From: an uncultured virus (IMG/VR IMGVR_UViG_3300025121_000017)
Taxonomy: Duplodnaviria; Heunggongvirae; Uroviricota; Caudoviricetes
Direction: 5' to 3' (one strand)
Length of the DNA stretch: 64,000 nt
IMG/VR virus record: IMGVR_UViG_3300025121_000017
Shown: positions 15,696 to 64,000 of the stretch, piece after piece
How positions within the stretch are numbered: position 1 is the stretch's first letter
Layout: every line of letters begins with the position of its first letter
Translations under genes and position numbers: made by a program
Notes under the pieces: generated by a model
What the model saw: only the letters and a program-made list of their open reading frames with translations
What the model was told of the DNA's origin: nothing
Database searches by the model: none

Positions 15696-15703
15696 GGGGT
15701 GCC

Positions 15704-28796: not shown

Positions 28797-30037
28797 GCAA
28801 ACACTGGTATAATACATACGTCACGATCACCTGAGGTTTCATGATCCGCGCCCACAAGATCCGCCTAAACCCCACCCCCGATCAGGAAGTCTACTTCCGG
28901 AAGGCCTGCGGCATCGCCCGCTTCGCCTTCAACTGGGGGCGCGCCAAGTGGGAGGAAGAGTTCAAGGCTGGGAACAAGCCGTCCGCTTTCGGCTTGAAGA
29001 AAGCGTTCAACGCCTTCAAGTCCGATCTCCCTTGGATTTATGAAGTGACCAAGTGCGCGGCGGAGGGTGCCTTCTCTGATCTGGGGTCAGCCTTCTCCAG
29101 CTTCTTTCGCGAGATCAAGTCCGGCAAGGTAGGTTATCCCAAGTTCAAGTCAAAGCATCGATCCAAGCCCACCTTCTACCTGGCAAACGACCAATTCTCG
29201 ATCGACGGACACACCCTGCACGTCCCCAAGCTTGGCCCCGTCAATATGACCGAACCCCTCCGCTTTGTCGGCAAGATCCTGTCCGGACGGATCAGTCTCA
29301 AGTCCGGGTACTGGTGGGTGTCGATCCAAGTCGAGTTACCCGATCCCGTTCCCGTCCCTCACACAGGTCCCGCCATCGGCATCGATCTCGGCCTGAAAGA
29401 GCTGGCGGTCTGCTCGGACGGGAGGCGGTTCCAAAATCCGAGGCATCTCCAGGTTGGTCTGAGGAAGATAAGATCTCTGTCTCGAGCCCTTGCTCGGAAA
29501 GTCAAAGGCAGCGCGAACTGGCTGAAAGCCAAGGCAAGACTCGCGCGCGCCCATTATCGGATCGCCTGCAGAAGATCCGACGTGGTCCACAAGATGACGA
29601 CTGAGCTTGCACGAGGGGCAAGCCTGATCGGCCTGGAAAGTCTCAATGTCTGCGGTATGCTCCAGAACAGAAGACTGGCCCGATCGATCTCGGATGCGGT
29701 CTGGGGTGAGATCAAACGTCAGCTCGGCTATAAAGCACCTGATCGAGGCGTACAGATCGACCGGTGGTTCCCCTCGAGCCGGCTCTGCAGATTCTGCGGT
29801 ACGATCAACCAGGAGCTGGCGCTGGCGGATCGAACCTGGACTTGTGCCTGCGGGGTGGAACACGATCGCGATTGGAACGCTTCAGTAAATATCAGGGACG
29901 AGGCGATCCGAATTTTGAGTCAAGTCCCGGTGATGGCTATGTCGGGACCTAAATACGCCTGTGGAGAGATCAGTGCACTGGACTGACTCTGTGAAGCAGG
30001 AATTGAAGCATACTTTTTGGGTATGTAGAAAGTAGCA
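28797..30037 (+). mobile_element. solo TnpB locus 1 (IS200/IS605/IS607-derived, no transposase)
   Basis: Similarity to locus 2 runs from GCAAACACTGGTATAAT to AGTAGCA. Confidence 0.75.
28841..29986 (+). CDS. tnpB: RNA-guided endonuclease TnpB
   Basis: HTH start; RuvC GIDLG, LESL, DRDWNAS intact; CRFC/CACG Zn finger. Confidence 0.95.
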   Translation: MIRAHKIRLNPTPDQEVYFRKACGIARFAFNWGRAKWEEEFKAGNKPSAFGLKKAFNAFKSDLPWIYEVTKCAAEGAFSDLGSAFSSFFREIKSGKVGYPKFKSKHRSKPTFYLANDQFSIDGHTLHVPKLGPVNMTEPLRFVGKILSGRISLKSGYWWVSIQVELPDPVPVPHTGPAIGIDLGLKELAVCSDGRRFQNPRHLQVGLRKIRSLSRALARKVKGSANWLKAKARLARAHYRIACRRSDVVHKMTTELARGASLIGLESLNVCGMLQNRRLARSISDAVWGEIKRQLGYKAPDRGVQIDRWFPSSRLCRFCGTINQELALADRTWTCACGVEHDRDWNASVNIRDEAIRILSQVPVMAMSGPKYACGEISALD

Positions 30038-34900: not shown

Positions 34901-35292
34901 AAGTCTGGCGCAAATGGCTTGATGAGCTGGACTCTCGCCACAATGACGGCGGTGAGCGCCGGGCCTCGCTAAGCGTGACAGACCCCGTGTCTGGCAAGAA
35001 AGTGGACCGTCCGGCTCATGTGTTCAAGCACGCTGGGTCCGATGAAGCCTATGCGGTACACGCGCACCGAGAGATGCCGAAGACGTACAAGGCGCAGCTC
35101 GCCCATCGGGAGAAATATCCTGACCAGCAGTTCGCGGTGACGCATCTTCCGTCCGGCAGGGTCGTCTCGACCCACGGCGAGAGCTACCAGGCGGAGCACC
35201 ATGCGAAGGCTTATCGGCGCTACGGCGAGCAGCACGCCGCGAAGCTGCAGGAGGCATTCCGGGAGAGCACGCCTCCGGATCTGAGTAAGTAG
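31906..35292 (+). CDS. large His/charged protein, putative internal virion cargo
   Basis: GAGG RBS; AEKG followed by AGWRTNPETHTVFP, paralogous to 63898-64000. Confidence 0.7.
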   Translation: MLHYNISLSALLDESPAEKGHRMPEEDVAGWRTNPETHTVFPITEAQERAHPVRDPEKHREIVRAVASHATGARGGDHTRTDRHAERSIGKEELHRIATERGQTARAERHAPVERQDSASTERPGPDTAPHKLSPADYDPHVHGLTEEHRGRIADSVKELAKRKDAALEALSARPDVLKRLKAKDAEEALQKLESDPYTPKGLDDVLAPYRSGKRSYAQFLADRDHGKLSAEAVERGEEVHTHAMTPELAKRAEMVKRRNELGHTMSLEEYHKHHADILPDAEHAQVKAAAETPIDSGRGAAADKHNATREAAYNKLQDDRGRRHTAEAAHRAGVVAAIQRGAHVPDEALAAHGDLAHIFDRTDASGRRSVDDETRHRLAKNIQAAEKKGGNPYSQASSVTLAHEAVPFFRPEGRPDVAATMHMFAGLNEHEHTVRPAMNGQGKIHFVEHSRIKADTPHSGWVKGEKTLGDSYDDAMKSLAHDLGRHKGAVFHDPVAKEYAEKMRGDLAKLGSPDKGTPAHKMSAADYLARRLEGPKGKYGTEETGLDNVPGYGRHLAGNVAKILEENTNRYHTGPSERIRNAGMGGGLLADFTEGSYSKHAYEAEKSAKAAGEEISPEAFDNPHLAHRMPKHVAEARQKVREERLRAKEAEPLTLTEVANRAWKDPSKVSTEDLQRLHAHVKEAKNNPNMERRVGDELNKREPKTDPKPKPRLNIPLSRVTHGEQYDELARRIKQRLERAHGHEADITIGGDGFDVNSNADGADWNRLVDSGQKHKGEAIAEMEAEENAKQAKPAPLDRMRASIASRRPQADPDFHQPIGTAHVPLPAQQGLFGPATSGGSTDAELALKKRTHPTEGDQYAVHMKRADSPSWELHPEPGAAKIDEDEDDNPILGDKQHWHGSADEALEAFAREHHKDASWPKYEGADEHTEREGNADGRMRIDGHEDAQQAFADEHKRVQEAFTHRTSREKARQQDAAKTKERTAADRAYKEKTRKAEVWRKWLDELDSRHNDGGERRASLSVTDPVSGKKVDRPAHVFKHAGSDEAYAVHAHREMPKTYKAQLAHREKYPDQQFAVTHLPSGRVVSTHGESYQAEHHAKAYRRYGEQHAAKLQEAFRESTPPDLSK

Positions 35293-49317: not shown

Positions 49318-52300
49318 ATGGCACAGTCTACCGACACACAGCCTGGGCAACACTGGATTACTGTCCGGGGCCACCATATTCAGATCGACGAGTCTGGGAA
49401 GATTTTGAAGGGCGGCAACAAGCTCGGGCTGAAGCGTCTTGAGAAGCCTTTGAGCGACCGACAAAAAGAAACGCTGCGAAAGGATAAAGAGCTCAAAGCG
49501 TTATACGACAACGATACGACGCGGCACGCTTTTACCGAAAACGGGACCAGCACGATGTGGGGGCGCCACCCCACGAAATTCTACGATTACTTGTTAGAGG
49601 AGGATCCTGAGCTCCATGCGTACGTGGACGAAACGCACTCAGCGGTCAACCGTCGTTTAGCCGACCCGAAGCGCATTCAGGAGCAGGCGCATCGTGCAGC
49701 TGAGGAACGGTATGAAGCTCAGGGACACGCCCCGGACCACGACGAAGCGCCCGCGAAATTGCGCGGTAAAAAGGTGTGGCTCTACCACGGTACGTCCGGA
49801 AAGTTTCACGACGATGTAATGGCAGAAGGCCTACGCATTAAACGTGGCGTGCGCAGCAACCCCGGCACCTCAGGCTCCAACGTCAGCGCTAGCCCCCATA
49901 TCAAGCTCACGTCTAACCCAGCGCAAGCGCACAAGTACGCGAGTTACGCCTCCAATAAACATGGAGGCGACCCAACAGTCTATCGAGTGTTGGTGGACGG
50001 AGATGACCTGGCTTGGGATACTGACGACGCTGATATCAAAAGCGGGCGCGAGCAGTACGCAACCTCACATGTTCGCCCAGATCAACTTATGGAAGTGAAC
50101 GGCGAGCGCATTCGCCCGATGGAAAAGGGCCTGCCTCACGACGTCAGCGCCGAGAAACGTGACCACGGCAAGTTCACCTCCGGCGCGAGCGTCCCCGGCG
50201 ACGCTCACCAGCTCACCTCCGATGTCCGTTCCTGGATCGCTGACCAGGGCAATGCCACCCACAAGCTCCTCAAGCCAGAGTACCGCCGCAAGGTGGAGGC
50301 TGGGGCCGTTCCTACCACCGGACACTGCTACGGGGCGAGCGAGGCGGTCTGGCACGCCACCGGAGGCGAGAAGCGCAGCCCCTGGCAGGCGCACGTCGTC
50401 CGGCACGAGGGCGGGACTCACTGGTTCTTGAAGCACAAGCAGTCTGGGGAGGTGCTGGACCCGACGCATGATCAGTTTGCGTCACCTGTCTCGTACCAGA
50501 GCGGCAAGGCCTGCGGATTTCTCACGCGAGTGCCGAGCCAGCACGCGCAGGCGATTTTGCGTGGAGTCGGTAGGGGTGACGCGATTGAGGCGGCAAAGGA
50601 GCATGCGGCGACCGTGCCATCGAAGTTTGCTGTAGCGAAGGCGAAACGCGCCGAAACGGAGCTGGCCAAGGGTGACGCGCACGACGTCTCCACTGAGAAA
50701 CGCGACGCCGACGGTCGTTGGACTCGAGACGGCTCAGCGCCTGTAAAGAGCCGCCGCAACCTCCTCGCCAACGCTATCACGGCTGATCTCCACGCCAACG
50801 GGGCTGTTAACCTCCTCGGGCGCAGTGTACCTAACGCGGACGCGCTCGCTAAGCTGTGCCAGGTGTTCCGCAACCCGTCTTACGAGACGCTTCGCTACGT
50901 CTTCGTGCGCCGCGGCAAGATCGTTGGAATGACCGGCGTGAGCTCACGCCTGCCTTCGCACGCGCGAGTCTTCCCCGTTGGGGATAAAGAAGGCGGTGGC
51001 TGGCTACGCTCGCATATGCAGAACTGCGACGCTGACGGCTATTACATGCTGCACAACCACCCGTCCGGGAACCCTACACCATCGCGTGCAGACCTTGCAA
51101 CGACACAGTATCTCGCTGCCTCCGTCCCAGGGTGTAAAGGGCATCTCGTCATCGATCACACCAAGTATTCCGTAATCTCGAAGGACGGGCAGGACTATGA
51201 GACTCTGGCCCTGGAGCGGGACGGGAGCCCTGATAACTTGCACGTACCGTCCGTTCCCCACCCGCTTTTGGGGAAACGCATCGCGGAGCCGGCAGACTTG
51301 GCCGCAATCGGGCTCAGCCTGGAGACTTCGGACAATTACGCAGTTTTAGTCGGGATTTCAGCTACGGGGCACGTGCGTGGATTGATGGAGGTGAGCAACG
51401 ACGTGCTCACCCACCCCGTGCGTGGCCTCGCCGCGGTGCGTGCATTTTCCCGCCAGTGTGGCTCAGCCTCCGTCTCAGCCGTCGTTCCTAAGAGCTTCGT
51501 GGACGAGCCTGAGCTTCGCGGACGGGGTGCGTTGTTAATCAGAAACGGGTCCCTGGTGGACGTCGTTACTCCCGAAGGTGATTCGTTGTTTGCCTCAGGG
51601 GAGCGCCCGGGTTACGGAATGCTTCACGGCAAGCCAGAACAGAAGATGCAAGCGCGAGAAGTGGACACCGTCGGGCATCGCGCAGCAGAGATGGCCAAGG
51701 GCGCCCCTCACGACACCTCCGATGAGAAACGCGACAAAGGCGGGAAATTCTCCGCCGTGGAGGGGCGCACCGGCGCAGCCACTCAGGCGGACGTGGACTC
51801 CTGGATCCACGATCAGGGCGCTATTCACATTCCCGGAGGCCACGACAAACGGCACGACGCCCACGTCCGCGTGATGGAGCGTAAGCCTGGTCACGTCCGG
51901 GTGAACTACGCGGATTACGACGCGGGCGGTGTGTGGATGCCGGAAGCGTCGCTGAAACACTTTGTCAATGATCTCTCTGGGCACGTGGACGGCAAGGCGG
52001 ACTCTGGGGATAAGCACGTGGACGCGGTGCTGAGAGGAGAAGGGCAGTACCTGGGGCGCGGGGACGACGGACTAGCTTTTCGCGTCGGCGACAAAGTGGT
52101 CAAGGTGAGCTCTACCGTGCCGTTTCAGCCCATGAACGAGGGGCATCGCAGCCCGGAGCAGGCCCGGGACCGACTGCTCGAGCAGGCACGGAATCACAAC
52201 GCCCTGCACGCAGCGGGTATCCCGGGCGTTGCCCCAGTGCGGACGCTTGTGCACGGGGACAAGGCGTTCCAGATTCAACAGCACTACGACACTACGACGA

Positions 52301-55300
52301 AGCTTTCTCGCGCGCAGGTGGAGCAGGTGCGGGACTCGGTCGCAGCCATGCACCAGGCTGGCTGGCACGTGCGTGACCAGGTCCAAGTTGGAGTCGATAA
52401 GGACGGCCAGATTCAGCACTATGACCTCGGGAAGGCACATCGGCTCCCAGAGGAAGGACAGGCCGCGAAATGGGCGCGCGAAGATGACGTGGACCACGTC
52501 AAGATGCTGATGAAGGACCACGGGCACGAGCCGCTCTCGATGTACTCGCCCTGGGCCACTAAGACGCAGGAAGACGTCGACAACATGTGGACAATGACAG
52601 GCGAGAATCTGTCTGACGATGAGCTGCGTGACATGTTCCAGAAGCACCCGGATCTCGAGGAGACTGAGCTGGAAGACGCAAAGGCTGCGCGGGACGCTCA
52701 CGCGCATGTGATCATGCGCGACAAACGCCCGTACAAAGAGCTGAGTGAAATGCAAGGGCGCTACTTCAAGTTTAAGAAACGCATACAGGCAGCTGCGCAG
52801 TACGCGCGGGAGAACACAATGGAAAAAGGCGCAGACTTCGCCCAAGACACCTTCCCAGCCACGTCTGGGCGCAAGCCAACGGAGCGAGCGATGCGCGCTG
52901 CACCGAGCATGTTCACCCTCGCACAACAGGCACTAGATATACTCCCAATGGAGGCCGGCGCGCGTTCTCCTGGCCAGCTCATGCACGAGATGGCGTTGGC
53001 GTCACGCGCCATGGACAAGGGCACCGACGGCAAACAGCGCTTTATCACCCTCGGCGAGGGAGAAGATCGCCACGTCGTGCCTGTCGGCCCGGATGGCAAG
53101 CTGCAGGGCGACCCGCCTCTGTCCGTGATGCACAAGATCCACGCCGGGACGACGGACGCGGGCAAGAAAGCCGAGTGGGCGCGGAAGATCGCGGAGCACG
53201 CGGATACGCCGAAGCCTGTGGCCGAAGAGAAGCGGCCCCTCGAGCGCATGCGCGAGATCGTGGCCGAGCGCACGGAGAAGCCGCAGCCCGTCCGAGCAGG
53301 TGACGCTAAGGAAGGCGATCTGTACACGACGGTGCCAGGCGGGCACGAGGTGAAAATCGGGAAGAGGACCAAAGACGGTGGTGTCATGGTTACCCGGACG
53401 AAGGATAAGAAGGAAGTGAGGGTGGCGGAGGGGCAGATGCTGGCGGCTAAGCCCGCAGCTGAGCCGCAGACGCAGCAGCCGGTGGAGTCGAAAGAGCCTT
53501 CTGTGGCGGAGCGGGAAGAGGAACGTGTCGCGAAGCCTGAGCCGAAGCCCGAGCCGGGTTCTTCTCTTCAGGACATGTCCGACCAAGAGCTGATAGCCGC
53601 GTTTCATCCCGCACGCAATGCCTTCGGTCCGGGAGGCCCCGCGGCTCAGAGCAGAGAAGCGTGGGCCGACGCGGAGAAGCATATTAATGCGCTACGCGCT
53701 GAGGGGATTCAACGCGACATGAACCTGGAGCGGAGCAAGAGCCCGCCGCGCAGCCCAGAGCAAATTAAGAAAGAGATGGCGAAACTGCAAGTGAGACTCG
53801 ACCGCGTTAACGCGCGGGGGCAGGACGGGTCCGGCGAATATAAACACCTGTCACGCGCGCAAGCCACCACGCGGGCCGCGCAGGGCGGGCAGCTCGCTGC
53901 GGGGCTGGCGCCCCTTCGTGACGAACTGTACCGAGCGGAGCATCCGGAAGAGCACATTGAGGGGGCCTACACCGCGCCGATACAGGGTCCCAACGGGCAG
54001 GACTTGTGGCAGTGGGCTCCTAGGCACCTGGGCTCGCTCTCGCCGGAGATGGCGGAGAAGTACCCGTACGAGGTGGTCAAGGCAATCGCTCGAGGCGAGG
54101 GCGGCGTCCAGGAATTGATTGCGACGACGCCGGGCGTCTTAGCTGCGCTGGAGAAGTTTAAGCGCCGCGTGGGAGACACGCAGGCCGTGCGGGAAGTAGA
54201 GGAGAGGATCAAGGCTGCAATGCCGAAAGAGCCCCCTGTGCCAGAGCGGAAAGAGGAGGTCGCAGCGAAGCCTGAGCCGAAGCCTGCATCGCGTCCAGCA
54301 CCCGAAAAGACCCGCGCGAAGCTTCAAGCACTCGCCAAGCCTGAACAGGAGGCCGAAAGTGTCCTAGATGAACGTTCCGGGCGTCGCGTCCACGACGACG
54401 TAGGCGAAAAGATTGGCGGGGCGCGAAAGGACAAGTGGGCTGAAGTGCATGCGGGCAACATCGATGCTCTGGAGGCGGAGGGGTCAGGTGAGGCTTTTAA
54501 GCATGTTACCAAGGAGAAGGTCTTAGGGCGACACGATCCGGCGAACGACCGCATGCTCGGCAGTACACCCGGGGCATCTTACGTCAAGCGCGCCATATAT
54601 GCCGCTATCGGAGCGCGTCCGTCGATGCCGGAGACAACGAGCAACATGCGTCAGGTAGAGCCGCTGGTGCAGCGGCTGTTCCCAGGCGAGAAGTTCACCG
54701 CAGACTCGCCGCTGGCGCGGTCGCTCTACATCTCTGGTATTGACCGCATCAAGAAGGGGTTAGACGCCTGCCAGACAGTAGCTGACGTGGAGCGATTCCT
54801 GGACGATTGGAAGGATGAGCACAAAGGCAAGTGGCAGAGCGAGGAACGAGTCACGGCTGAGATGGGCGCGGACTTGGAAAAACGTTACCCAGCTGAATGG
54901 AGCGCTGGGTACAGCTATGTCTTCGCAGACGGGCAAAAGTACAAGGTATCTGACGCGGCACTTCAGCGCGATGGTTACCGAATCGGGTATCGTACCGAGA
55001 ACGACAAAACCGTGTCTGTGCTGCGAAAAGATGCCGAAGATCTTGCGACACGGTACCGTCCGATATTCGAGAGCGCGGTGCTTGGAAAACGGTGGCATGA
55101 AGGTGTGCTGAAATCCTTTAAAGGCGCGTTCGGTGACACACTTCGAGAGGCCCGCCGCCGCGAGACTGACGACGCACATTGGGCTACAGCGTATCCGGAG
55201 TGGGCAGGTGGCGAGGCAGAACGCGCCACTCGTGAGCGAGATCCTGTGCAGAAATATGTCGTTACACGCGCTGGCGGTGTCCCAGAGCGCGTGGGTGGGA

Positions 55301-56328
55301 CGCCGATTCCGTCCAGTGTGACCGGGGACGCGTTGATGGACCGCTTCGGGCTGCGCGCGGTGGAATACGGTAACTGGGTCAACGACGCGGACGCTGGTAA
55401 ACATCTGCACCACGCCTACGGGGCGCTTACAGACCTGGCCGGGCTGCTAGGTGCCGATCCGAAAGATGTTGCAAGTAATGGCAAGCTGGCGCTTGCGTTC
55501 GGTGCTCGAGGCTCTGGGCACGCCATGGCGCACTATGAGCCCGATCGGCGCGTTATTAACCTGACACATACACGCGGCGGTGGCACACTTAGTCACGAGT
55601 GGGCGCATGCGCTTGACCATGCGTTAACGGAGCACGGATTCACCGTAGAGAAACGTTTTACGCGACGCGGCACATTCGCGTCGCACGGGGAAGCCCCGAA
55701 GCTCCACTCGGACACGCAGCGCGCTTTCCAGGAGGCGATGAAAGCGATTGCCGCGCCATCTGAGCTGTCTCCGCAAGGACGCGAAGAGCTAGAGCGTCGC
55801 AAAGCAGAGGTCCAGGCCCTGTACCCGAAATGGGACAAGGAACGTGGGCACGAGGTTTACAAGCAGGACACCGCCCGGTACAATGCAGCGGCGAAATCAT
55901 TCAACAGCTGGTCAAAAGAGCATCTTCACGACCAGAAGCGCTCTAAGTTTGCAAGTGACGCTGCCAAGATGGGCGACTACTGGGAACGTCCGCATGAGAT
56001 GTTTGCCAGGGCATTTGAATCGTGGGCTGAGGATCGGCTGGCACAGCGCGGGCAGAAGAACACGTACCTGGTGACGGGTACAGCTCAAAAGTACCGATGG
56101 GCCAAGAAGGATAAAGACGGGATGACATGGGAAGATCTCGAGCCATACCCGCATGGCGAGGAGCGGAAGCGCATCCACGGCGCGATCGACAAGCTCGTTG
56201 AGACACTGGCCAGGACGGGCGATATGAAGAAGGGCCTCGAACGGCTCGCCGAGCGCAGCACGGCTCCGTCTCGACGTACTTTTGCTGAGATGCTGCGCAG
56301 GAGTCATCCGCAGCTCTCATTAAGGTAG
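49318..56328 (+). CDS. 2336-aa polyvalent protein: ART-like, papain-like, JAB/MPN, kinase-like, LPD1-like zincin
   Basis: LYHGT..GL (49783); GHCY..THW..DPT (50326-50460); HNHPSG..PS.AD (51052); YLGRG..VVK..YDLG (52045-52440); DVGEKIGGARKD (54397); VEYGNW..HEWAH..EMFARAFE (55340-56030). Confidence 0.85.
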   Translation: MAQSTDTQPGQHWITVRGHHIQIDESGKILKGGNKLGLKRLEKPLSDRQKETLRKDKELKALYDNDTTRHAFTENGTSTMWGRHPTKFYDYLLEEDPELHAYVDETHSAVNRRLADPKRIQEQAHRAAEERYEAQGHAPDHDEAPAKLRGKKVWLYHGTSGKFHDDVMAEGLRIKRGVRSNPGTSGSNVSASPHIKLTSNPAQAHKYASYASNKHGGDPTVYRVLVDGDDLAWDTDDADIKSGREQYATSHVRPDQLMEVNGERIRPMEKGLPHDVSAEKRDHGKFTSGASVPGDAHQLTSDVRSWIADQGNATHKLLKPEYRRKVEAGAVPTTGHCYGASEAVWHATGGEKRSPWQAHVVRHEGGTHWFLKHKQSGEVLDPTHDQFASPVSYQSGKACGFLTRVPSQHAQAILRGVGRGDAIEAAKEHAATVPSKFAVAKAKRAETELAKGDAHDVSTEKRDADGRWTRDGSAPVKSRRNLLANAITADLHANGAVNLLGRSVPNADALAKLCQVFRNPSYETLRYVFVRRGKIVGMTGVSSRLPSHARVFPVGDKEGGGWLRSHMQNCDADGYYMLHNHPSGNPTPSRADLATTQYLAASVPGCKGHLVIDHTKYSVISKDGQDYETLALERDGSPDNLHVPSVPHPLLGKRIAEPADLAAIGLSLETSDNYAVLVGISATGHVRGLMEVSNDVLTHPVRGLAAVRAFSRQCGSASVSAVVPKSFVDEPELRGRGALLIRNGSLVDVVTPEGDSLFASGERPGYGMLHGKPEQKMQAREVDTVGHRAAEMAKGAPHDTSDEKRDKGGKFSAVEGRTGAATQADVDSWIHDQGAIHIPGGHDKRHDAHVRVMERKPGHVRVNYADYDAGGVWMPEASLKHFVNDLSGHVDGKADSGDKHVDAVLRGEGQYLGRGDDGLAFRVGDKVVKVSSTVPFQPMNEGHRSPEQARDRLLEQARNHNALHAAGIPGVAPVRTLVHGDKAFQIQQHYDTTTKLSRAQVEQVRDSVAAMHQAGWHVRDQVQVGVDKDGQIQHYDLGKAHRLPEEGQAAKWAREDDVDHVKMLMKDHGHEPLSMYSPWATKTQEDVDNMWTMTGENLSDDELRDMFQKHPDLEETELEDAKAARDAHAHVIMRDKRPYKELSEMQGRYFKFKKRIQAAAQYARENTMEKGADFAQDTFPATSGRKPTERAMRAAPSMFTLAQQALDILPMEAGARSPGQLMHEMALASRAMDKGTDGKQRFITLGEGEDRHVVPVGPDGKLQGDPPLSVMHKIHAGTTDAGKKAEWARKIAEHADTPKPVAEEKRPLERMREIVAERTEKPQPVRAGDAKEGDLYTTVPGGHEVKIGKRTKDGGVMVTRTKDKKEVRVAEGQMLAAKPAAEPQTQQPVESKEPSVAEREEERVAKPEPKPEPGSSLQDMSDQELIAAFHPARNAFGPGGPAAQSREAWADAEKHINALRAEGIQRDMNLERSKSPPRSPEQIKKEMAKLQVRLDRVNARGQDGSGEYKHLSRAQATTRAAQGGQLAAGLAPLRDELYRAEHPEEHIEGAYTAPIQGPNGQDLWQWAPRHLGSLSPEMAEKYPYEVVKAIARGEGGVQELIATTPGVLAALEKFKRRVGDTQAVREVEERIKAAMPKEPPVPERKEEVAAKPEPKPASRPAPEKTRAKLQALAKPEQEAESVLDERSGRRVHDDVGEKIGGARKDKWAEVHAGNIDALEAEGSGEAFKHVTKEKVLGRHDPANDRMLGSTPGASYVKRAIYAAIGARPSMPETTSNMRQVEPLVQRLFPGEKFTADSPLARSLYISGIDRIKKGLDACQTVADVERFLDDWKDEHKGKWQSEERVTAEMGADLEKRYPAEWSAGYSYVFADGQKYKVSDAALQRDGYRIGYRTENDKTVSVLRKDAEDLATRYRPIFESAVLGKRWHEGVLKSFKGAFGDTLREARRRETDDAHWATAYPEWAGGEAERATRERDPVQKYVVTRAGGVPERVGGTPIPSSVTGDALMDRFGLRAVEYGNWVNDADAGKHLHHAYGALTDLAGLLGADPKDVASNGKLALAFGARGSGHAMAHYEPDRRVINLTHTRGGGTLSHEWAHALDHALTEHGFTVEKRFTRRGTFASHGEAPKLHSDTQRAFQEAMKAIAAPSELSPQGREELERRKAEVQALYPKWDKERGHEVYKQDTARYNAAAKSFNSWSKEHLHDQKRSKFASDAAKMGDYWERPHEMFARAFESWAEDRLAQRGQKNTYLVTGTAQKYRWAKKDKDGMTWEDLEPYPHGEERKRIHGAIDKLVETLARTGDMKKGLERLAERSTAPSRRTFAEMLRRSHPQLSLR

Positions 56329-56338
56329 GCACATACCT

Positions 56339-57581
56339 GCAAACACTGGTATAATGCACACGTCGTAGTTATCTGAGGTGTCATGATCCGCGCCCACAAA
56401 ATCCGCCTCAATCCCACCCCCGATCAGGAAGTCTACTTTCGCAAGGCCTGCGGCATCGCTCGGTTCGCATTCAACTGGATGCGCGCAAAGTGGGAGGAAG
56501 ACTTCAAGTCGGGAGGCAAGCCGTCCGCGCTGGCTCTGGTCAAGGATCTACGTGCAGTGAAAGCCGATCATTTCCCGTGGATAGCGGAGGTGACGAAATG
56601 CGCCTTGGACGGGGCCAGGATTGATCTGGGATCCGCCTTCTCAAACTTCTTTCGAGAAGCCAAGTCCGGCAAAGTAGGTTATCCCAAATTCAAGTCAAAG
56701 CATCGATCCAAGCCTGCCTTCTACTTGGCGAACGACAAGTTTTCAGTCGATGCCCATACCTTGCACGCTCCCAAGCTCGGCCCGGTCAACATGACCGAAC
56801 CTCTCCGCTTTGTTGGCAAGATCCTCTCCGGGCGGATCAGCTTTAAATCCGGCTACTGGTGGGTATCGATCCAGGTTGAGTTACCCGATCCTGCTCCCGT
56901 ACCTCATACGGGTCCAGCGATCGGAATCGACCTCGGCTTGAAAGAACTGGCAGTTTGCTCGGACGGGAGACGGTTCCCGAATCCAAGGCACTTCCATGCT
57001 GGTCTGAGGAAGATAAAATCTCTGTCTCGCTCCCTAAGCAGGAAAGTTCAGGGCAGCGCGAACTGGCTGAAAGCCAAGGCCAAGCTCGCGCGTGCCCATT
57101 ATCGGATCGCCTGCAGGAGATCCGATGCGATCCATAAGACGACGACTGATCTCGCAAAGGGAGCAAGCTTGATCGGACTGGAAAGTCTCAATGTCTGCGG
57201 TATGATGCAGAACAAGAGACTGGCTCGGTCGATCTCGGACGCTGTCTGGGGTGAGATCAAGCGCCAGCTCGGCTATAAAGCCCCCGATCGGTGCGTGCAG
57301 ATCGATCGATGGTTCCCCTCGAGCAGATTGTGTAGGTTCTGCGGCACGATCAACGCGGATCTCACGCTGGCGGACCGAACCTGGACATGCACCTGCGGGG
57401 CCGTCCACGATCGCGACTTGAACGCTTCAATCAACATCAGGGATGAAGCGATCCGAATTTTGAACCGAGTCCCGGTTATGGCTATGTCGGGACTTTAATA
57501 CGCCTGTGGAGGGATCAGTGCACTGGGCTGACTCGAGGAAGCAGGAATTGATGCATACTTTTGGGTATGTAGAGAGTAGCA
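56339..57581 (+). mobile_element. solo TnpB locus 2
   Basis: Paralogous to 28797-30037 with the same boundaries of similarity. Confidence 0.75.
56383..57498 (+). CDS. tnpB: RNA-guided endonuclease TnpB
   Basis: GIDLG, LESL, DRDLNAS intact; Zn finger. Confidence 0.95.
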   Translation: MIRAHKIRLNPTPDQEVYFRKACGIARFAFNWMRAKWEEDFKSGGKPSALALVKDLRAVKADHFPWIAEVTKCALDGARIDLGSAFSNFFREAKSGKVGYPKFKSKHRSKPAFYLANDKFSVDAHTLHAPKLGPVNMTEPLRFVGKILSGRISFKSGYWWVSIQVELPDPAPVPHTGPAIGIDLGLKELAVCSDGRRFPNPRHFHAGLRKIKSLSRSLSRKVQGSANWLKAKAKLARAHYRIACRRSDAIHKTTTDLAKGASLIGLESLNVCGMMQNKRLARSISDAVWGEIKRQLGYKAPDRCVQIDRWFPSSRLCRFCGTINADLTLADRTWTCTCGAVHDRDLNASINIRDEAIRILNRVPVMAMSGL

Positions 57582-57601
57582 AACGGAGAAGGCGCGCAGC
57601 G
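57469..57601 (+). ncRNA. omega-RNA 3' scaffold plus predicted guide
   Basis: Same hairpins as locus 1; diverges after AGTAGCA. Confidence 0.65.
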
Positions 57602-57741
57602 AGAAACTGCATAAGGTGGAGGAACTCGTAGCGCTTAGAAAGGGGAAGGAGATGGAGAAGGGCCTTGGTCGCCTCGCTGAGCGCAGCGCGTCTTCGTCTC
57701 GTCTCACATTCGCTGAATTGCTGTACAGGAGATCCGCATGA
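57580..57741 (+). pseudogene. orphan 3' end of a polyprotein gene
   Basis: MEKGLGRLAERSASSSRLTFAELLYR matches the C-terminus of the 49318 product at 18 of 26 aa; stop overlaps ATG 57738. Confidence 0.65.
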
Positions 57742-60254
57742 GCCTGGTCCGCATGAGAGAGCTCCTCAAAGGCGACGACAAGCCCCGCTTCATCACCCTG
57801 GGCGAAGGCCCCGACCGCAAGGTCGTGCCGCTTGGCCCTGACGGTAATCTCCACGGCGACCCGCCGGAGCACGTGCGTGCGAAGATCGAAGCCGGTACGA
57901 AGGACCCGGAGAAGAGGGCGGCGTGGGCTGCGAGACGTGCGGGCGCAGCCCCGACGCACGAGGCCGGCGAGCCCGACCCGCACGCAGAGCACAGAGAGAA
58001 GCTCGTCAAGCGAGTGCGTGAGCTCGGGAACAGCGCCAGAGCGGAGCAGGTGTTCGGGAAACCTCAAAGATACGTCAGGCGCGGACGAGACCCTGAGACA
58101 GGACAGTCGCTCCTCGACACGGTCGACCAGCCGCGCAGCTGGCCCTTCGAAGCTGTGCCGTGGGACGCTAAGTTCGGCCTCGAGCACGATGATCGTTTCG
58201 AGCCGGACCCGCGCCGTGAAGGTGCCTGGCGGATCAAAGGCGAGTCCACGCTGCAAGATCGTCCGTGGGAGCTGATGAGAGACGCGCACCACGATGCGTT
58301 GTACCACTACAACCACGAACGCGACATGGCGCTCTACCACCCGAAGGCCAAGCAGGCGGACGCCGACTGGGCACTCCAGTCCACGCGCGGCGAATTGGCA
58401 CGCTTGCTCCATACAGCCACAACGTACTCCTGGAACGTGCCGCCCGCTGTGAAGAAGGACGCGGAAGCGTATAGTTCCGCGTGGGACCGCGCGTACAGCC
58501 AGGGCAAGTGGCGGGACAAGCACCCGCCGGAGGATGCGGAGGGGAAACTCGAGGCTGCACGAAGTAAGCTGGTCGCGCACGCCAAACGGCTCCGTGGCAC
58601 GCCAGAGGGTGATGCACTTTTCCGGCACGTCGGGGACAGGTACTCCACCCCCGTCGAGGATGCGCTTGACAGGTATGCAGAGCACGAGCAGGCACACGCA
58701 GAGGCGAAAAAGGCAGTCGACGCTGTTGCGGTACGGTACCCTGAGAAGGGGGACTGGCAGTCGACGGTGCAAGCCGCGCTGGACCGCGGCGAGCCGCTGC
58801 CGTATGGCGCCGCCAAGGCTCTCTGGACTGAGTTCAAGGATACACACGGGCACAGCGCGTCCTTCAAGGCTTACATGGACGTGCACGCGCAACACCCGGC
58901 TGATATGAGCCCAGAGACCGCCGCACGCAACGCGACTGTGCGCAAGGTCCCGATCGGGCAGGGGCATGTCTTCTCTGCCGAGTTCCAACACCCGCACGGA
59001 ACGTGGCAGGAGACCGTCACGCCTGAGGGGGACGAACGTTACACGATGACAGAGGACCAGGCGCGCGATAAGGCGCAGCAGCAGATACGTGAGCGCGGGC
59101 AGAAGAAGCCGTCTAATGTCCCGGACTGGTTCGCACAGGAGCATCCAGAGCACGGTGCTTCGCTCAAGGACATGCTGCGTGTGGAAGGTGATAGCGACGA
59201 CCCTGCCGTGCGCGCCGGGGTCGCTTCTCTCGCGAAGTTCCCCGCACCGCTACTCGCCGCGCTGCGTACTCACGGCATGAACGGCATCCACATCGGGAAC
59301 GTCAACACTCCGGACCTCGACGACCTGGGGTATCTGCGGGACATCAAACGAACCGCCGAGGCGTGGGACGACCGCGCTACCTGGGACGAGATCGGCGGGG
59401 CCTTCTCGCACAGCAACAACGTCGCAGCCACAGGGACGCTACAGGAACGAATGGCGCCGAGCCGTGCGGCGCATGTGACTCTTCACGAAGTCGGGCATGC
59501 GCTCGGGGACAATCTTGGATTAAATGACCACCCAGAGCTGATCGCTGCCCACACTCGTCTCGCCAAAGGGCATAGACTCGTGCCTTACCTGCACCGGACA
59601 GGCGAAGGGGATGACATCGGGCGACGAGAGCTGTTGGCGGAAGGCTTCGCGCACCTACTCGGGCACGGTCCGACGCATGCAGCGTCACTGTATGATAGAG
59701 CGTACGTGCGCTTCCTTCAGCGTCACATTGCCCACTACGGCGGCCCGGCTGTTCCGGCGGCTACTCCAGCTGATTTGCCGTTCGATGAGTATGCCACGGA
59801 GGAGCGGAAGACGGTTGCGCACAAGCTTCTGGCCGATCGTGCGCGTAAGTTGGACGTTCAGCTCGCACAGAACGCGGTGACGGAGGCAGAGGAGCAACTC
59901 ACTCGCCATCAACAGGCTGCGCGCGAGGACAGCTGGAGCTGGGACGAGTCTCAGAAAGAGCGTCACGCAAAGACGACGCAAGACAGCGAGAGCGAACTTA
60001 AACACTTCCAAAAAGAACTACGCGAAGCCAAGAAACACGAGTACACTGCTGCTTATTTGGGGGTTACAGGTGCTCTCCAAGGCGCGCACAACAGTTGGGC
60101 ACGCCTGGCGGATCTTGAAACCGGCGAGACCCCAATCGGCGATGAAGACGACCGCGCGATTCTGCGTGCGTGGGCCAAGCGCGTAGAAGAGCGGCACGTC
60201 GACCCGGAGCTGCACGCTCGCCTCAAGAAATTCATGAAGGCCAACAAGATTTGA
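57738..60254 (+). CDS. 838-aa polyvalent protein with anthrax-LF-like zincin metallopeptidase
   Basis: LLKG then RFITLGEG..VVP.GPDG.L.GDPP (also at ~53040); TLHEVGHALG (59484)...ELLAEGFA. Confidence 0.8.
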   Translation: MSLVRMRELLKGDDKPRFITLGEGPDRKVVPLGPDGNLHGDPPEHVRAKIEAGTKDPEKRAAWAARRAGAAPTHEAGEPDPHAEHREKLVKRVRELGNSARAEQVFGKPQRYVRRGRDPETGQSLLDTVDQPRSWPFEAVPWDAKFGLEHDDRFEPDPRREGAWRIKGESTLQDRPWELMRDAHHDALYHYNHERDMALYHPKAKQADADWALQSTRGELARLLHTATTYSWNVPPAVKKDAEAYSSAWDRAYSQGKWRDKHPPEDAEGKLEAARSKLVAHAKRLRGTPEGDALFRHVGDRYSTPVEDALDRYAEHEQAHAEAKKAVDAVAVRYPEKGDWQSTVQAALDRGEPLPYGAAKALWTEFKDTHGHSASFKAYMDVHAQHPADMSPETAARNATVRKVPIGQGHVFSAEFQHPHGTWQETVTPEGDERYTMTEDQARDKAQQQIRERGQKKPSNVPDWFAQEHPEHGASLKDMLRVEGDSDDPAVRAGVASLAKFPAPLLAALRTHGMNGIHIGNVNTPDLDDLGYLRDIKRTAEAWDDRATWDEIGGAFSHSNNVAATGTLQERMAPSRAAHVTLHEVGHALGDNLGLNDHPELIAAHTRLAKGHRLVPYLHRTGEGDDIGRRELLAEGFAHLLGHGPTHAASLYDRAYVRFLQRHIAHYGGPAVPAATPADLPFDEYATEERKTVAHKLLADRARKLDVQLAQNAVTEAEEQLTRHQQAAREDSWSWDESQKERHAKTTQDSESELKHFQKELREAKKHEYTAAYLGVTGALQGAHNSWARLADLETGETPIGDEDDRAILRAWAKRVEERHVDPELHARLKKFMKANKI

Positions 60255-60264
60255 GGATCTCGCT

Positions 60265-63200
60265 ATGTCCGATTCGATCCTGGTGAGCGACACGCTGCCC
60301 GATGGCACGCACATCGACTATTACCGTAAGCGCACGTCTGCGGACATCGACCCGCCGACGACAGCGGAGATGGCGTTGCAGGGCATCCGGGAGAGTCTGG
60401 CGGAGGAGAGTGACAGCTTCAAGGGCCGTACCTCCGCCCCCGTCCTCCACCACCTCCGCCGCCTCGGACACGACGATGCCTCTATCGCCGCCATGCCCGC
60501 GTCCGACCTGGCCCGCCACGCCGCAGCCGCGCGGCATCGCGTCCAGGTTGACCCGTTCCCTGGCTTCAACCGCGTCGAGCACCCTTTCGTCGGGCGCATC
60601 GTATGGCACGGCCTGCCGATCGGCGTCGAGAACGAGGCCGGCAGTCATCGCGAAGGCGTGGACAAGGACGGCACACCGTGGCGCTGTATGGTCCCGTCCC
60701 ACTACGGCGAGCTGCAAGGCATGCCAGGCCCTGGCAACGCTGGGCTCACGGACGCCTATTCGCCGGACGGTGACCGCTGGGATCTGATGGTCGATCCACA
60801 CGGTCACCACGACGCGCCGGACCCGATGGCGCACACCGTCCGGCAGATGAACGAGACCGGGGAGTTCGACGAGCCGAAGACGGTGCTGGGCTCGCCATCG
60901 GCCGGGTCCGCCAGAGCGCTCTACCTAGCACACTTCAACGACGGGAAGGCTGAACAACGCTTCGGTGGGATGATCTCGCACCCGATCGAAGAGTTTAAGA
61001 GCGTCATCTCGGACCCGGAGAGGCGGGCGGCGCTGCTTGAGCAGCTGCGGACCGGGGAGGGCATGGAGTCTCCGGGGCCAATGCCTGTGGTCGATTTGAC
61101 GGAGCAGAGCAGGGGGGACGGGAGGATCGCGCTGCCGCACCCGGGGGTGGGGACGCGGTATGACATCCGGACTGGACTCGAGCGGATGTTTGACGCGCAC
61201 CTGAATGGGGCGGGACGGCTGCTGGTCCGGCGGAGCGAGCTGCAGAAAGGCTTTGACCCGAGCGAGGCACGTGACGCGCATGGGCGGTGGACAGCAGAGC
61301 TGCGAAGCAAAGTGGCAGCCTGGCACGGGCTCGACCTTCCAATACACGGAGATGAGATCGACGGTGTCAACGTCGACGACTACGCGTCGGCCCACCAAGA
61401 GGATACGATCTCAGCGTTCGCCAAGGCGCTGGGAGTGCCCTACACAGAAGCGGAGCCGCACGCCGTCCAGGCTGTCGAAGAGTATGCGAGCCGCGTGCGT
61501 GCCGCCGGAGATGACCTGCGGATGGTCCGCAACAAATCTTTCCCCGCGAAGGTGCGCAAGATGCAAGAAATTGGACAGCACCACGCCGAGGAGGATGGGG
61601 AAGACATTTCTCCCATGGAAGTGCACCACCGTGCCCACCACATTCTGCACCACAGCGGAGTGCAGACGGGCGACACCGAGTACCGTAAGCTGGTGAAGGC
61701 GTATGAAGACGCGCATCGCCGCCCCGCAAAAGCCATGGCCAAGGGTACCCCCGGCGTCGGCGTCTCGGATAGCGGACCGAGCACCCCGCAGGATCTGGAG
61801 GGCGCTCCGCACCGGCTCGACGGACGATCGCTGGACTTTCGCCCCGGTGTCCGGGAGGAGCTCGAGAAGCTGGCGGAAAAGGGCCGGGACGTGTCCGGGG
61901 AGGCGAGGGACAGTAAGGGGCGCTGGACCGGCGAGCCCTGGCAGCGCAACGCGCGCGATCACGAGGCCGCCGCCACAGAGACAGAGCACGCCCCCGTGTT
62001 CGATGAGGACACCGCGAGGAAGATACGCGCCGCGTGGGGCAGTCAGACGAAGATCAAGAAGGTGGCGATGGAGCACGCGCGCGCCGCAGGGGCCGCCGGA
62101 CTCTTTGGCATGCCGGAGGCGCAATTCTACTCGAGGGCTCGCGCCTACATGGAGTCCGGGAAGATTCCCACGCTCGCCGTAGAGAAAGAGATGCCGTTCA
62201 GCGAGTCACTGGCGCGCAAGGAGGCCGCTCGAAAGGAATGGGTGGCGTCCACTACCGCAGCGTTCCACGCGGGAAAACCTGTGCCGTTCACGCACTTAAA
62301 CTCCGCGCAGGAAACGCGGAAGCTCCCAAAAGAGCTGGCGCGGACCATGGGCCACGCGGACTATGTCAAGCGGATGACTGATCGTCACGGCGCGTCCGCT
62401 GACGTCGCGAGCCAGGTGTGGGCACAAGAGCACCCTGGCGTGCCCCTGTCTGCCGCTCCGACGCAAGAAGACGCCCTCCGCAGTATGTCCGATGAGGAGC
62501 TCGACGCCGCGGTGATCGACGCGTACCAGGCGGACCCTGATTCTGCGCGTGAAGAGACCCGTGCGCTGTTCGCGGAGTCGGATCGGCGGCACGCGATGCA
62601 CAAGGGCCGCGACACCTCCTCAGAGCCTCGCGACGCACACGGGCGGTGGACCGAAGTCGCCTCCCACGCCGAGCGCCACGGCGACCTCAAATACACTCAT
62701 TACTCCACCCGAGACGGCTCCCTGCAGCCCGATCGCGGTCCAGCTCTGCGCGTCGGGGTGTCCCACGTCAACGAAGCGGTAGAGCGGGGCCACATCGAGC
62801 CCTACATCGGAGACGGCTACGAGATCGGCGGCTCCGTCCGGTACAGACACGCGACACCGGACAGCTCAACCCGGCAGGAGCGCGCAGAACGGGGCACGCT
62901 GCTGGCACTGGCAGACTTCCACGCGAGGGAGGTGCAGAAGCACGAGGAACGGTGGGGCGCGAGTGAGACGTACCGTCCGGCCATTCATCGGAGCCAGGTG
63001 CTCAACTCGGGACTGGCGAGCGCTAAGACGCTCGAGAAGCTGGAGAAGCGGGGGTTGATCGAGGGGAACACGACGCGGACCACGCACAGCGAACTGAGGA
63101 AAATGGCGAACACGTTCGGGAAGTGGAACGGGACGAAGTCGTATGAGAGCAGCGAGACGATCTACCGGATGACGCCGAGGGGGCTGGAGGAGGCGGAGAA

Positions 63201-64000
63201 GTTGCGGGGAGAGAAAAATGCGGAGAAGGGGGTACAGCCTCACGACGTAGAGGACGAGAACCGCGACCGAGGCGGCAAGTTCTCGACGACGGAAGGACGC
63301 ACCGAAGAGGGTCCCGATGCTGCGCAGGTGTCCAACTGGATTCACGATCAAGGGTCCAAGGAGGTCAAGCACCCCGGACTCAAGCCCACAGAGATTGGAG
63401 AGCATGGTGCGACGTTCAGAACTGGCCATCCGGTCGACGTGCACTACCATCGCAACACTGAGAAAGCGCCCAAGGCGAAGCACCTGACCCAAGATTTCGG
63501 GCAGGCAATCGAACCTTCTGGACGCTATATGCTGCACGACCACGATCGAGGCGCGCCTGCGTTTCCGGGGTGGGAGAAGGGAAAAGTGCAGTTCAAGAAT
63601 CCCATCGTACTCGAGCACGGCACTACGACGTCCGAGCCCCATGGGTGGAAGGCGCGCTTATCGGCCGCGTTTGGCGGTAAGAAGGGCAAGGCATTGTCCA
63701 AGGCTATCGCGGAGCGCGGACACGACGGAATCGTCACAGTAGAGGAGTACCAGCATGCGGGAAAGACGCATCGGAATACGTCCGAGATTGTAGATTTGAC
63801 ACACCTTCAGGCTCGCGGCATGGATAAGGGTAGCTACGCAGAACGTCGATCCTGGCTTCAGCAGGCAGCGGGACGCCCCGTTGTGGTAGAATCCGACGCC
63901 GAGAAAGGCCGCCGCCTCGACCCCGACTCCATAGCCGGCTGGCGCACGAATCCCGAAACCCACACCATCTTCCCCGTCACGGAGTCTCAAGCCAAAGAGC
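60265..64000 (+). CDS. polyvalent protein, >1245 aa, 3'-truncated: inorganic pyrophosphatase-like and ART-PolyVal-like domains
   Basis: Manually translated, no stop to window end; GLPIGVEN.AGS.R.G...HYG...DGD...FDE.K (60600-61000); FKNP...GHDGIV...SEIV (63590-63795). Confidence 0.85.
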   Translation, partial: MSDSILVSDTLPDGTHIDYYRKRTSADIDPPTTAEMALQGIRESLAEESDSFKGRTSAPVLHHLRRLGHDDASIAAMPASDLARHAAAARHRVQVDPFPGFNRVEHPFVGRIVWHGLPIGVENEAGSHREGVDKDGTPWRCMVPSHYGELQGMPGPGNAGLTDAYSPDGDRWDLMVDPHGHHDAPDPMAHTVRQMNETGEFDEPKTVLGSPSAGSARALYLAHFNDGKAEQRFGGMISHPIEEFKSVISDPERRAALLEQLRTGEGMESPGPMPVVDLTEQSRGDGRIALPHPGVGTRYDIRTGLERMFDAHLNGAGRLLVRRSELQKGFDPSEARDAHGRWTAELRSKVAAWHGLDLPIHGDEIDGVNVDDYASAHQEDTISAFAKALGVPYTEAEPHAVQAVEEYASRVRAAGDDLRMVRNKSFPAKVRKMQEIGQHHAEEDGEDISPMEVHHRAHHILHHSGVQTGDTEYRKLVKAYEDAHRRPAKAMAKGTPGVGVSDSGPSTPQDLEGAPHRLDGRSLDFRPGVREELEKLAEKGRDVSGEARDSKGRWTGEPWQRNARDHEAAATETEHAPVFDEDTARKIRAAWGSQTKIKKVAMEHARAAGAAGLFGMPEAQFYSRARAYMESGKIPTLAVEKEMPFSESLARKEAARKEWVASTTAAFHAGKPVPFTHLNSAQETRKLPKELARTMGHADYVKRMTDRHGASADVASQVWAQEHPGVPLSAAPTQEDALRSMSDEELDAAVIDAYQADPDSAREETRALFAESDRRHAMHKGRDTSSEPRDAHGRWTEVASHAERHGDLKYTHYSTRDGSLQPDRGPALRVGVSHVNEAVERGHIEPYIGDGYEIGGSVRYRHATPDSSTRQERAERGTLLALADFHAREVQKHEERWGASETYRPAIHRSQVLNSGLASAKTLEKLEKRGLIEGNTTRTTHSELRKMANTFGKWNGTKSYESSETIYRMTPRGLEEAEKLRGEKNAEKGVQPHDVEDENRDRGGKFSTTEGRTEEGPDAAQVSNWIHDQGSKEVKHPGLKPTEIGEHGATFRTGHPVDVHYHRNTEKAPKAKHLTQDFGQAIEPSGRYMLHDHDRGAPAFPGWEKGKVQFKNPIVLEHGTTTSEPHGWKARLSAAFGGKKGKALSKAIAERGHDGIVTVEEYQHAGKTHRNTSEIVDLTHLQARGMDKGSYAERRSWLQQAAGRPVVVESDAEKGRRLDPDSIAGWRTNPETHTIFPVTESQAKE

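Follow-up and report, generated by a model that had tools for sequence, protein, structure and literature searches.

An uncultured member of the Caudoviricetes (IMG/VR record IMGVR_UViG_3300025121_000017) encodes, towards the end of the 64,000-nucleotide stretch that we analysed, given as one strand 5' to 3' (the window), a group of large modular proteins in which a recurring short junction unit stands in front of otherwise unrelated modules. As we read it, the unit would be made of a short amphipathic helix ending in (M/L/A)-x-K-G and, directly behind it, one of three start tags, and it would precede each enzyme module as the handling signal of that module. The first of these tags is the local form of a widespread unit which appears to be undescribed so far. 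We propose that the proteins that carry it are the cargo polyproteins of a head-delivered system whose modules are each marked by the junction unit and probably set apart by a cut upstream of the tag, a proposal to which we give about an even chance of being correct.

Junction units in the cargo proteins

The cargo region examined here (positions 49318-64000) consists of three large + strand open reading frames (ORFs), encoding P0001, a protein of 838 amino acids (aa) and P0003, the last of which is still open at the 3' end. The initial annotation of this DNA, made from the sequence alone, had listed 16 x-x-K-G tetrapeptides as module boundaries, and every one of them lies where it was placed, 15 within the three cargo ORFs; the remaining one, MEKG at 57652, is present at its coordinate but belongs to a gene remnant behind a TnpB insertion and not to an intact gene. 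When the cargo ORFs are compared with 1000 shuffles, M-x-K-G occurs 8 times against 0.47 expected and [ML]-x-K-G 12 times against 1.87 expected, neither count being attained in any shuffle, whereas the bare KG dipeptide is not enriched (27 against 22.5 +/- 4.5, with 186 of the 1000 shuffles reaching 27), so that the expected excess over shuffled sequence holds for the two longer patterns and not for the dipeptide. The rest of the window, amounting to 15,459 aa of greedy ORFs, holds a single M-x-K-G, within a macro domain. Since x-x-K-G precedes sequences as unrelated as type-1, type-2 and type-3 tags, a C-terminal tail and four unique sequences, it must be more than a part of the type-1 tag.

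Type 1 reads D-[VTP]-x-x-E-x-R-D-x-x-G-[KR]-[FW] and is found in seven copies; type 2, RFITLGEG…VVP.GPDG, is found in three; and type 3, AGWRTNPETH, in two, one at the end of P0003 and the other in an 1128-aa protein encoded elsewhere in the window. The proposal that seven tags follow x-x-K-G directly was confirmed by alignment under the pattern K-G-x(1-4)-D-[VTP]-x-x-E-x-R-D-x(1-2)-G-[KR]-[FW], in which K, G, D, E, R, D and G never vary, the copies having an overall identity of 23-51% and widely divergent DNA. One copy has RD-x-G in place of RD-x-x-G; a six-frame scan of the window returned the six regular copies and none beyond P0001 and P0003. The WI[AH]DQG stretch that had been noted after three type-1 tags is indeed there, and in the single module modelled it forms the first helix of the folded domain. 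At module starts we also observed R[WF][IV]T[ILM]xGxx[IV]x[IV]…G, both in the window (49351-49413, 53017-53118 and 57768-57866) and in three unrelated tagged proteins (P0032, P0097 and P0133), and this motif may be an alternative junction tag.

The presence of several unrelated enzyme domains per polypeptide in a phage context, together with an LPD domain and a zincin module, makes the window's cargo proteins polyvalent proteins and new members of that class. In P0001, Pfam recognises RadC/JAB (E 1.6e-6) and PF18796 LPD1 (E 1.3e-21, aa 2214-2299), and in P0003 InPase (E 6.2e-22), in agreement with the JAB, LPD1 and pyrophosphatase domains named in the initial annotation. Its remaining domain names fared less evenly: the ART-like module does have a PARP/ART-like match in P0001, which falls short of the Pfam cut-off (E 0.0055); the module called papain-like belongs to the YunG family; the kinase-like module is an Atlas lead only (SteC/OspG clusters, score 0.93); and the ART-PolyVal domain placed in the last module has no Pfam match at E <= 0.1. 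The AlphaFold2 model of the YunG-family module has a predicted local distance difference test (pLDDT) value of ~90 over the domain, and its best structural matches are LapG, transglutaminase, NAT-type thiol enzymes and protein glutaminases at Z 5.7 or less, while Foldseek with the same model (module B) gave no match at E <= 1e-3. Zincin signatures occur as HEWAH at P0001 aa 2093, inside the CLCA_X/phrog_18947, LPD5-like region, and as HEVGH at aa 583 of the 838-aa protein, where phrog_4415 peptidase matches with E 3.2e-5. By tblastn, the LPD5/LPD1 region of P0001 matches LPD5-domain proteins of Stx phages.

The tags split no Pfam or PHROG domain in the cargo proteins. Stand-alone homologues of the YunG-type module measure 124-144 aa and none of them carries a tag, thereby indicating that the tags are additions at the joints. 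The picture of modular polyvalent proteins whose modules each open with a conserved tag is supported.

A widespread unit in front of effector domains

The type-1 tag is how a widely distributed unit appears in this window; that unit is composed of an amphipathic helix, a Lys, [HFY]D[VP]SxE[PA]RDxxG[KR]WT and a Gly-rich linker. A search with the seven copies led to metagenomic proteins bearing many copies of [FY]DP[ND]EPRDxxGRWT or HDVSxExRDxxGKWT; an exact degenerate DNA pattern retrieved 57 stretches from IMG/VR, corresponding to 45 distinct copies; and a 52-row motif profile, run on 1.84 billion cluster representatives, matched 562 clusters at E <= 1e-3, of which 84 also passed <= 1e-10, individual proteins containing as many as 11 matched stretches. 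The consensus drawn from 438 strict copies in 149 proteins runs from a hydrophobic stretch through K and [HFY]D[VP][SP]x[EQ][PA]RDxxG[RK]W(96%)T(79%) to G at +9 to +11, with the K at -7 or -8 in ~54% of the strict copies, and AlphaFold2 run on the 52-row alignment predicts a helix and then a turn, with pLDDT 88 over the core.

These data leave an extremely small probability to the notion that the units are ordinary flexible linkers devoid of specific function and repeated through recent internal duplication. Like linkers, the tags do occupy the space between domains and have low-complexity sequence behind them; against this, the motif is common to all 562 clusters, the unit precedes unrelated domains, and its invariant residues persist in the window while overall identity drops to the values given above.

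Among the 149 proteins, the last copy falls within 60 aa of the C-terminus in just one, while the first copy is no further than 30 aa from the N-terminus in 26% of them and no further than 60 aa in 48%; the median spacing between tags is 247 aa, and a single protein may hold up to 9 strict copies. Tags that are so rarely C-terminal and so often N-terminal indicate that the unit is a prefix of the domain that follows. In 55 of 153 proteins the tag begins within 40 residues of the protein start, in several at residue 2-5, some of these proteins opening with the core itself and others with a 4-10-residue hydrophobic leader ending in K. Natural N-termini at the tag are the product expected of a cut just upstream of it, and those consisting of the core alone imply that the helix-Lys part is dispensable at N-termini. 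A Lys is found 6-14 residues upstream of the tag in 328 of the 438 copies; the residue behind it is Y in 83, A in 77, F in 31, R in 31 and G in 25, and since Gly so rarely follows Lys in the relatives, KG is to be regarded as a local flavour of the unit.

The unit comes after MuF and portal domains, opens protease-capsid fusions and lies ahead of ADP-ribosyltransferase (ART), Acb1, zincin and toxin domains. In a sample of 46 proteins (every third of 145 newly returned representatives, those past the size limit being skipped) we found ART-PolyVal (9), Phage_Mu_F (4), Acb1 (3) and DUF7178 (3), then InPase, Zeta toxin, ADPrib_exo_Tox and 2'-5' RNA ligase (2 each), and furthermore portal, MuF_C, S78_2, sigma-70, topoisomerase IB, CCA-adding enzyme, GNAT and C39-like peptidase. 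The zincin signature HExxH is present in 49 of the 153 tagged proteins, as compared with ~10 in shuffles. Four proteins (P0022, P0019, P0065 and P0054) are arrays in which tags alternate with zincin (HExxH) modules, P0022 having six HExxH and six tags in register, and L138 and P0086 are mini-proteins made up of a tag and a zincin. The tag could therefore serve as a search key for injected counter-defence enzymes, given that Acb1, ARTs, 2'-5' ligases and zincins all come after it.

Neither Pfam nor NCBIfam holds a family that covers the tag, and the motif profile matched 0 chains of the PDB at E <= 10. Spellings of the motif such as RDxxGRW were not found in the literature, subscription papers and supplements lying outside the scope of that search, nor was a description of the motif found in the literature on capsid targeting, cargo and MuF toxins. 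A 32-aa tag had no tblastn match in isolated phages, as a query that was too short or filtered. Xanthomonas phage Rb1 and Gordonia phage Skog, which have homologues of the domains, carry no tag, and tblastn of two further proteins (P0013 and P0011) against phages gave capsid/protease or unrelated-domain matches only.

Phage heads, chromosomal toxins and the fate of the chain

The relatives connect the unit with head assembly. The tag is N-terminal in fusions of S78 protease and capsid protein (L001, L011, L028 and L052), stands directly after Phage_Mu_F in three loci (L006, L036 and L024) and occurs in portal fusions; it also lies ahead of ADPrib_exo_Tox or ART-PolyVal domains, and the tagged genes of relatives are found amid terminase, portal, protease and capsid genes. 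Phage_Mu_F is present in six tagged relatives (L006, L024, L036, P0035, P0128 and P0152). The closest analogue of the window's system, G001, is a viral genome of 96 kb, complete and bounded by direct terminal repeats, in which a 2324-aa polyvalent protein and its 737-aa neighbour are encoded between the portal and the protease/scaffold-capsid genes, both repeating an almost invariant …(E)K[AS]LT[LI]xDIMK[GAV] before variable tags. These gene clusters and fusions, as read from sequence, fit a packaging of the tagged proteins in the head. A homologue of the P0001 LPD5/LPD1 module identified by tblastn in phage phi24B, gp47, was detected in virions by mass spectrometry.

On the reading that we favour, the polyproteins would enter the procapsid alongside the head-assembly proteins, and the chain would probably be cut within the junction, at a point behind the conserved Lys and immediately ahead of the tag, by a phage protease that may be either the prohead protease or the zincins within the cargo proteins. 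Each released effector would then start with the tag, which would be kept because a later step needs it, be it retention, ejection or binding to a conserved partner. A cut upstream of the tag is the most economical reading of the place of the unit before domains, of the N-termini at the tag, of the upstream Lys, of the company of zincins and S78 proteases and of the fusions to head proteins. Self-processing of polyvalent proteins by zincins has been proposed (Iyer et al. 2017, PMC5512222). A complex prediction combining the P0001 zincin region, Zn and a junction peptide scored 0.00, which counts neither way.

A number of findings weigh against a chain that is packaged and cut in this way. As many as 110 of the 438 strict copies have no Lys in the interval from -6 to -14, outside the window the Lys is followed by Gly in just 25 of 328 copies, and several proteins open with the core alone. 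In G001, DIMK[GA] occurs six times, always in the two cargo genes and never in the capsid, protease/scaffold or portal genes. No terminase, portal, prohead protease or capsid gene is recognisable within the 64-kb window, and bacterial chromosomes, too, have the tag in toxin-immunity loci, with flanks that, taken over 2.5 kb on each side, hold housekeeping genes and contain no phage genes. Finally, there are polyvalent proteins that enter the particle uncut, the N4 virion RNA polymerase among them (Iyer et al. 2017, PMC5512222).

Some of these points bear more directly on a stricter model, close to the one put forward in the initial annotation, whereby a Lys-specific prohead protease would cut at each x-x-K|G, also in capsid and scaffold propeptides, leaving effectors that begin with Gly and the tag. 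This model can invoke the 6- to 17-fold enrichment of M/L-x-K-G and its position before unrelated sequences, the separate 1128-aa protein with a 17-residue leader ending in AEKG, the invariant …LADIMK[GAV] repeated before variable tags in G001, and the S78-type proteases found alongside many tagged proteins; the protease of HK97, moreover, reportedly cuts its capsid protein after a Lys. We nonetheless consider it unlikely, because Tyr, Ala and Phe are all commoner than Gly behind the Lys elsewhere, because the head genes of a genome as complete as G001 lack DIMK[GA], because the cargo ORFs contain 12 KG beyond the sites first noted, of which two lie inside tags and 10 away from any junction or tag, and because the window offers no recognisable prohead protease gene of the phage.

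Another possibility is that nothing is cut at all and that the tag is a binding peptide by which a module or the entire polyprotein docks to a conserved partner, for instance the inside of the capsid, the portal, the ejection apparatus or a factor of the host; on this view the proteins would travel intact. A conserved stretch of ~20-30 residues exceeds the usual size of a protease site, its helix and turn are predicted with good confidence over the core, and the core is retained at true N-termini, where there is nothing to cut off; besides, transfer of the intact protein is described for both the N4 virion RNA polymerase and TraC1/ArdC (Iyer et al. 2017, PMC5512222). The phi24B homologue gp47 is reported as a 2811-aa virion protein, with no processing mentioned in the available text of that report. 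On the other side, one tag would suffice for docking and up to 9 strict copies are present in a protein, the tag is present as well in proteins that have an anchor already through their fusion (MuF, portal, capsid), there is no known partner, and the motif appears in no solved structure. We hold this explanation to be unlikely, to about the same degree as the stricter model.

The tag is not confined to phages. A scan for EPRDxxGRWT over one genome per prokaryotic species yielded at least 121 stretches; among the matches listed, 76 are in-frame in the 80 loci read, 55 of these 76 having the extended [FY][ND]P[DN] context, and their bearers are mostly Alphaproteobacteria, with Actinobacteria, Planctomycetota and others. 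The proteins of one alphaproteobacterial family start with a conserved domain of ~115 aa that belongs to no known family, continue with the helix-K-tag unit and have variable C-termini that include EC869-like and Tox-REase-5 nucleases, with a CdiI or Imm52 gene adjoining. The tag is thus also a pre-toxin junction in chromosomal polymorphic toxins, which connects phage cargo with a chromosomal toxin family and indicates that the tag is not purely a capsid feature, since a role based on the capsid alone fails to explain these loci. Its layout there resembles that of the pre-toxin junction motifs of polymorphic toxins, VENN of CdiA and DPxGL of Rhs, in that a short conserved motif lies directly upstream of a variable toxin; the tag differs from them in sequence, in recurring many times per protein and in being linked to phage head genes.

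Such loci are what would be expected if the junction units were mainly recombination joints for the swapping of effector cassettes, comparable to pre-toxin motifs and with little biochemical role. The tag sits exactly between the conserved N-terminal domain and the variable toxins in the alphaproteobacterial loci with adjoining CdiI or Imm52, the repertoire of domains behind it is very varied, and P0004, a near-identical 829-aa relative of P0003 (window 60265-62700), diverges ~15 residues after the third tag and ends soon after, the point of divergence beside the tag being a possible cassette-swap breakpoint. Even so, amino-acid conservation of the motif extends over several bacterial phyla and numerous groups of phages, the DNA of the seven window copies varies widely, and the strictness with which E, R, D, G and W are kept speaks for selection acting on the peptide, so that a mere joint seems to us very unlikely.

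A broader version of the packaging proposal would make the unit a general cargo-cassette signal of tailed-phage heads, which would direct loading, a cut upstream of the tag and ejection, the toxin-immunity loci then representing toxins delivered by phages or gene-transfer agents. We rate this extension as quite improbable; if it were true, the tag could serve to recognise the effectors that are injected, whatever the phage genome, and as a means of loading capsids with proteins of choice.

Three further roles for parts of the unit were considered and set aside. An internal translation start at the Met of M-x-K-G found no support, the tag as a DNA-binding peptide was dropped in view of the net acidic charge of its core, and self-cleavage at Asp-Pro is at odds with the presence of D-P only in the FDP variant.

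Among known systems, the T4 internal proteins with their capsid-targeting sequence and the ejection proteins of the giant phages phiKZ and SPN3US, which the prohead protease cuts, offer the likeness of a short N-terminal signal with a protease site on head-packed, injected proteins. Proteins of the T4 internal and phiKZ type are cut after Glu and each is encoded by a separate gene, whereas the signal in the window recurs inside polyproteins, has a conserved Lys and is followed by a further 15-residue tag. Polyvalent proteins, which are predicted to be delivered with the DNA and processed by built-in zincin peptidases, share with the cargo proteins the many unrelated conflict domains per polypeptide (RadC, InPase, LPD1, ART-like, zincin), although the window's modules carry defined junction units and no inter-domain signal is named in the main text of Iyer et al. 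(2017, PMC5512222), on which the supplements may bear. In MuF polymorphic toxins a head-assembly protein carries an effector or toxin as an extension, whose packaging is presumed (Zhang et al. 2012, PMC3482391; Jamet et al. 2017, PMC5576092), with delivery involving papain-like releasing peptidases (Zhang et al. 2012, PMC3482391); the available text of Jamet et al. (2017, PMC5576092) makes no mention of a motif, cleavage or linker. Tagged relatives resemble these toxins in having the tag between the MuF domain and an ART toxin, while the window's cargo proteins differ from them in that Phage_Mu_F (PF04233), by which MuF toxins are recognised, has no match there. The packing, separation and release of polyvalent proteins and MuF toxins have so far not been tied to any sequence signal, and a unit of ~30 residues is now defined for them to be examined against.

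Feature coordinates and neighbouring genes

The window is overall phage-like and rich in GC (~58-67%), with phage-type genes for an amidase endolysin, a LamG tail-fibre-like protein, a D12 methylase, HNH and T5orf172. The features described above are collected in Table 1; the 1128-aa protein at 31906-35292 lies outside the range that was first annotated and yet belongs to the same tag system.

Table 1. Cargo proteins, junction units and associated elements (nucleotide positions in the window unless otherwise given)
Feature	Position	Strand	Description
Polyvalent protein P0001	49318..56328	+	2336 aa
P0001 modules	aa ~99-210; 302-438; 569-602; ~840-1170; 1983-2123; 2214-2299		ART/PARP-like; YunG-type thiol-enzyme fold; RadC/JAB; SteC/OspG-like (lead only); CLCA_X/LPD5-like region; LPD1
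Second cargo protein	57738..60254	+	838 aa; N-terminus is LLKG + type-2 tag (57762-57866)
Polyvalent protein P0003	60265..64000	+	At least 1245 aa, runs off the window; InPase aa 110-248, unassigned modules, four type-1 tags
Fourth cargo protein	31906..35292	+	1128 aa, charged; 17-residue leader, AEKG, type-3 tag (31960-32049)
Type-2 start tag, P0001 N-terminus	49351..49413	+	HWITVRGHHIQIDESGKILKG; no KG in front
Type-1 tag 1	50125..50175	+	KGLPHDVSAEKRDHGKF; M-E in front (MEKG 50119), WIADQG helix behind
Type-1 tag 2	50668..50721	+	KGDAHDVSTEKRDADGRW; L-A in front (LAKG 50662)
Type-1 tag 3	51697..51750	+	KGAPHDTSDEKRDKGGKF; M-A in front (MAKG 51691); long form, WIHDQG
MEKG junction	52819..52830	+	No recognised tag behind
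MDKG + type-2 tag	53011..53118	+	Tag 53017-53118, P0001 aa 1234; …RFITLGEGEDRHVVPVGPDGKLQGDPP
MKKG + C-terminal tail of P0001	56224..56325	+	31 residues, GLERLAERS…TFAEML…
TnpB/IS605-OrfB element	56339..57581	+	ORF 56383-57498; between first and second cargo genes
Remnant	57580..57741	+	Divergent second copy of the P0001 C-terminal tail (~40 codons), other frame; contains …EMEKGLGRLAERS…TFAELL…
Type-1 tag 4	61246..61290	+	KGFDPSEARDAHGRW; L-Q in front (LQKG 61240)
Type-1 tag 5	61879..61926	+	KGRDVSGEARDSKGRW; A-E in front (AEKG 61873)
Type-1 tag 6	62602..62649	+	KGRDTSSEPRDAHGRW; M-H in front (MHKG 62596)
Type-1 tag 7	63226..63282	+	KGVQPHDVEDENRDRGGKF; A-E in front (AEKG 63220); long form, WIHDQG
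Remaining x-x-K-G sites	60415; 61735; 63820	+	SFKG; MAKG; MDKG; all in P0003
AEKG + type-3 tag, end of P0003	63898..64000	+	…AGWRTNPETHTIFPVTESQ; window end cuts the tag
Alphaproteobacterial toxin-immunity loci	L090, L135, L084, L065 and related		GTDB genome contigs

The element between the first two cargo genes is a member of the IS200/IS605 TnpB group, as judged by its OrfB_IS605 (E 3.1e-26), Cas12f-like TNB (2.4e-15) and HTH (6.7e-13) domains, and a second TnpB/IS605-OrfB copy at 28797-30037 has 83% identity to it. The remnant that follows the element ends in a TGA that overlaps the ATG of the 838-aa gene. The conjunction of the element, a duplicated gene end and the overlap of stop and start suggests that the TnpB copy between the cargo genes was acquired by recombination with a variant genome rather than by simple insertion.

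Two other proteins in the window deserve mention. A further polyvalent protein of 1539 aa (15643-20262, + strand), with macro/DarG-like, DUF4326, YpsA-SLOG and phosphatase-like modules, is without any junction tag and has only 2 KG dipeptides. A 615-aa protein of no known family (26924-28771, + strand) contains …AMSLNKG followed by a Pro/Lys-rich C-terminal tail of 46 residues, that is, a junction-like site outside the polyproteins.

Searches for close counterparts of the cargo proteins returned little: no close relatives of P0003 were found in IMG/VR or JGI metagenomes, an exact 60-base stretch from the window end had no match among metagenome and viral contigs, P0001 aa 1100-1500 as a protein query matched solely P0001 itself, and PDB sequence searches with three unassigned window proteins gave nothing useful. 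P0001 is, on the other hand, listed on seven contigs in the protein collection, the longest of 184,768 bp, and the phage genome is probably ~185 kb or more.

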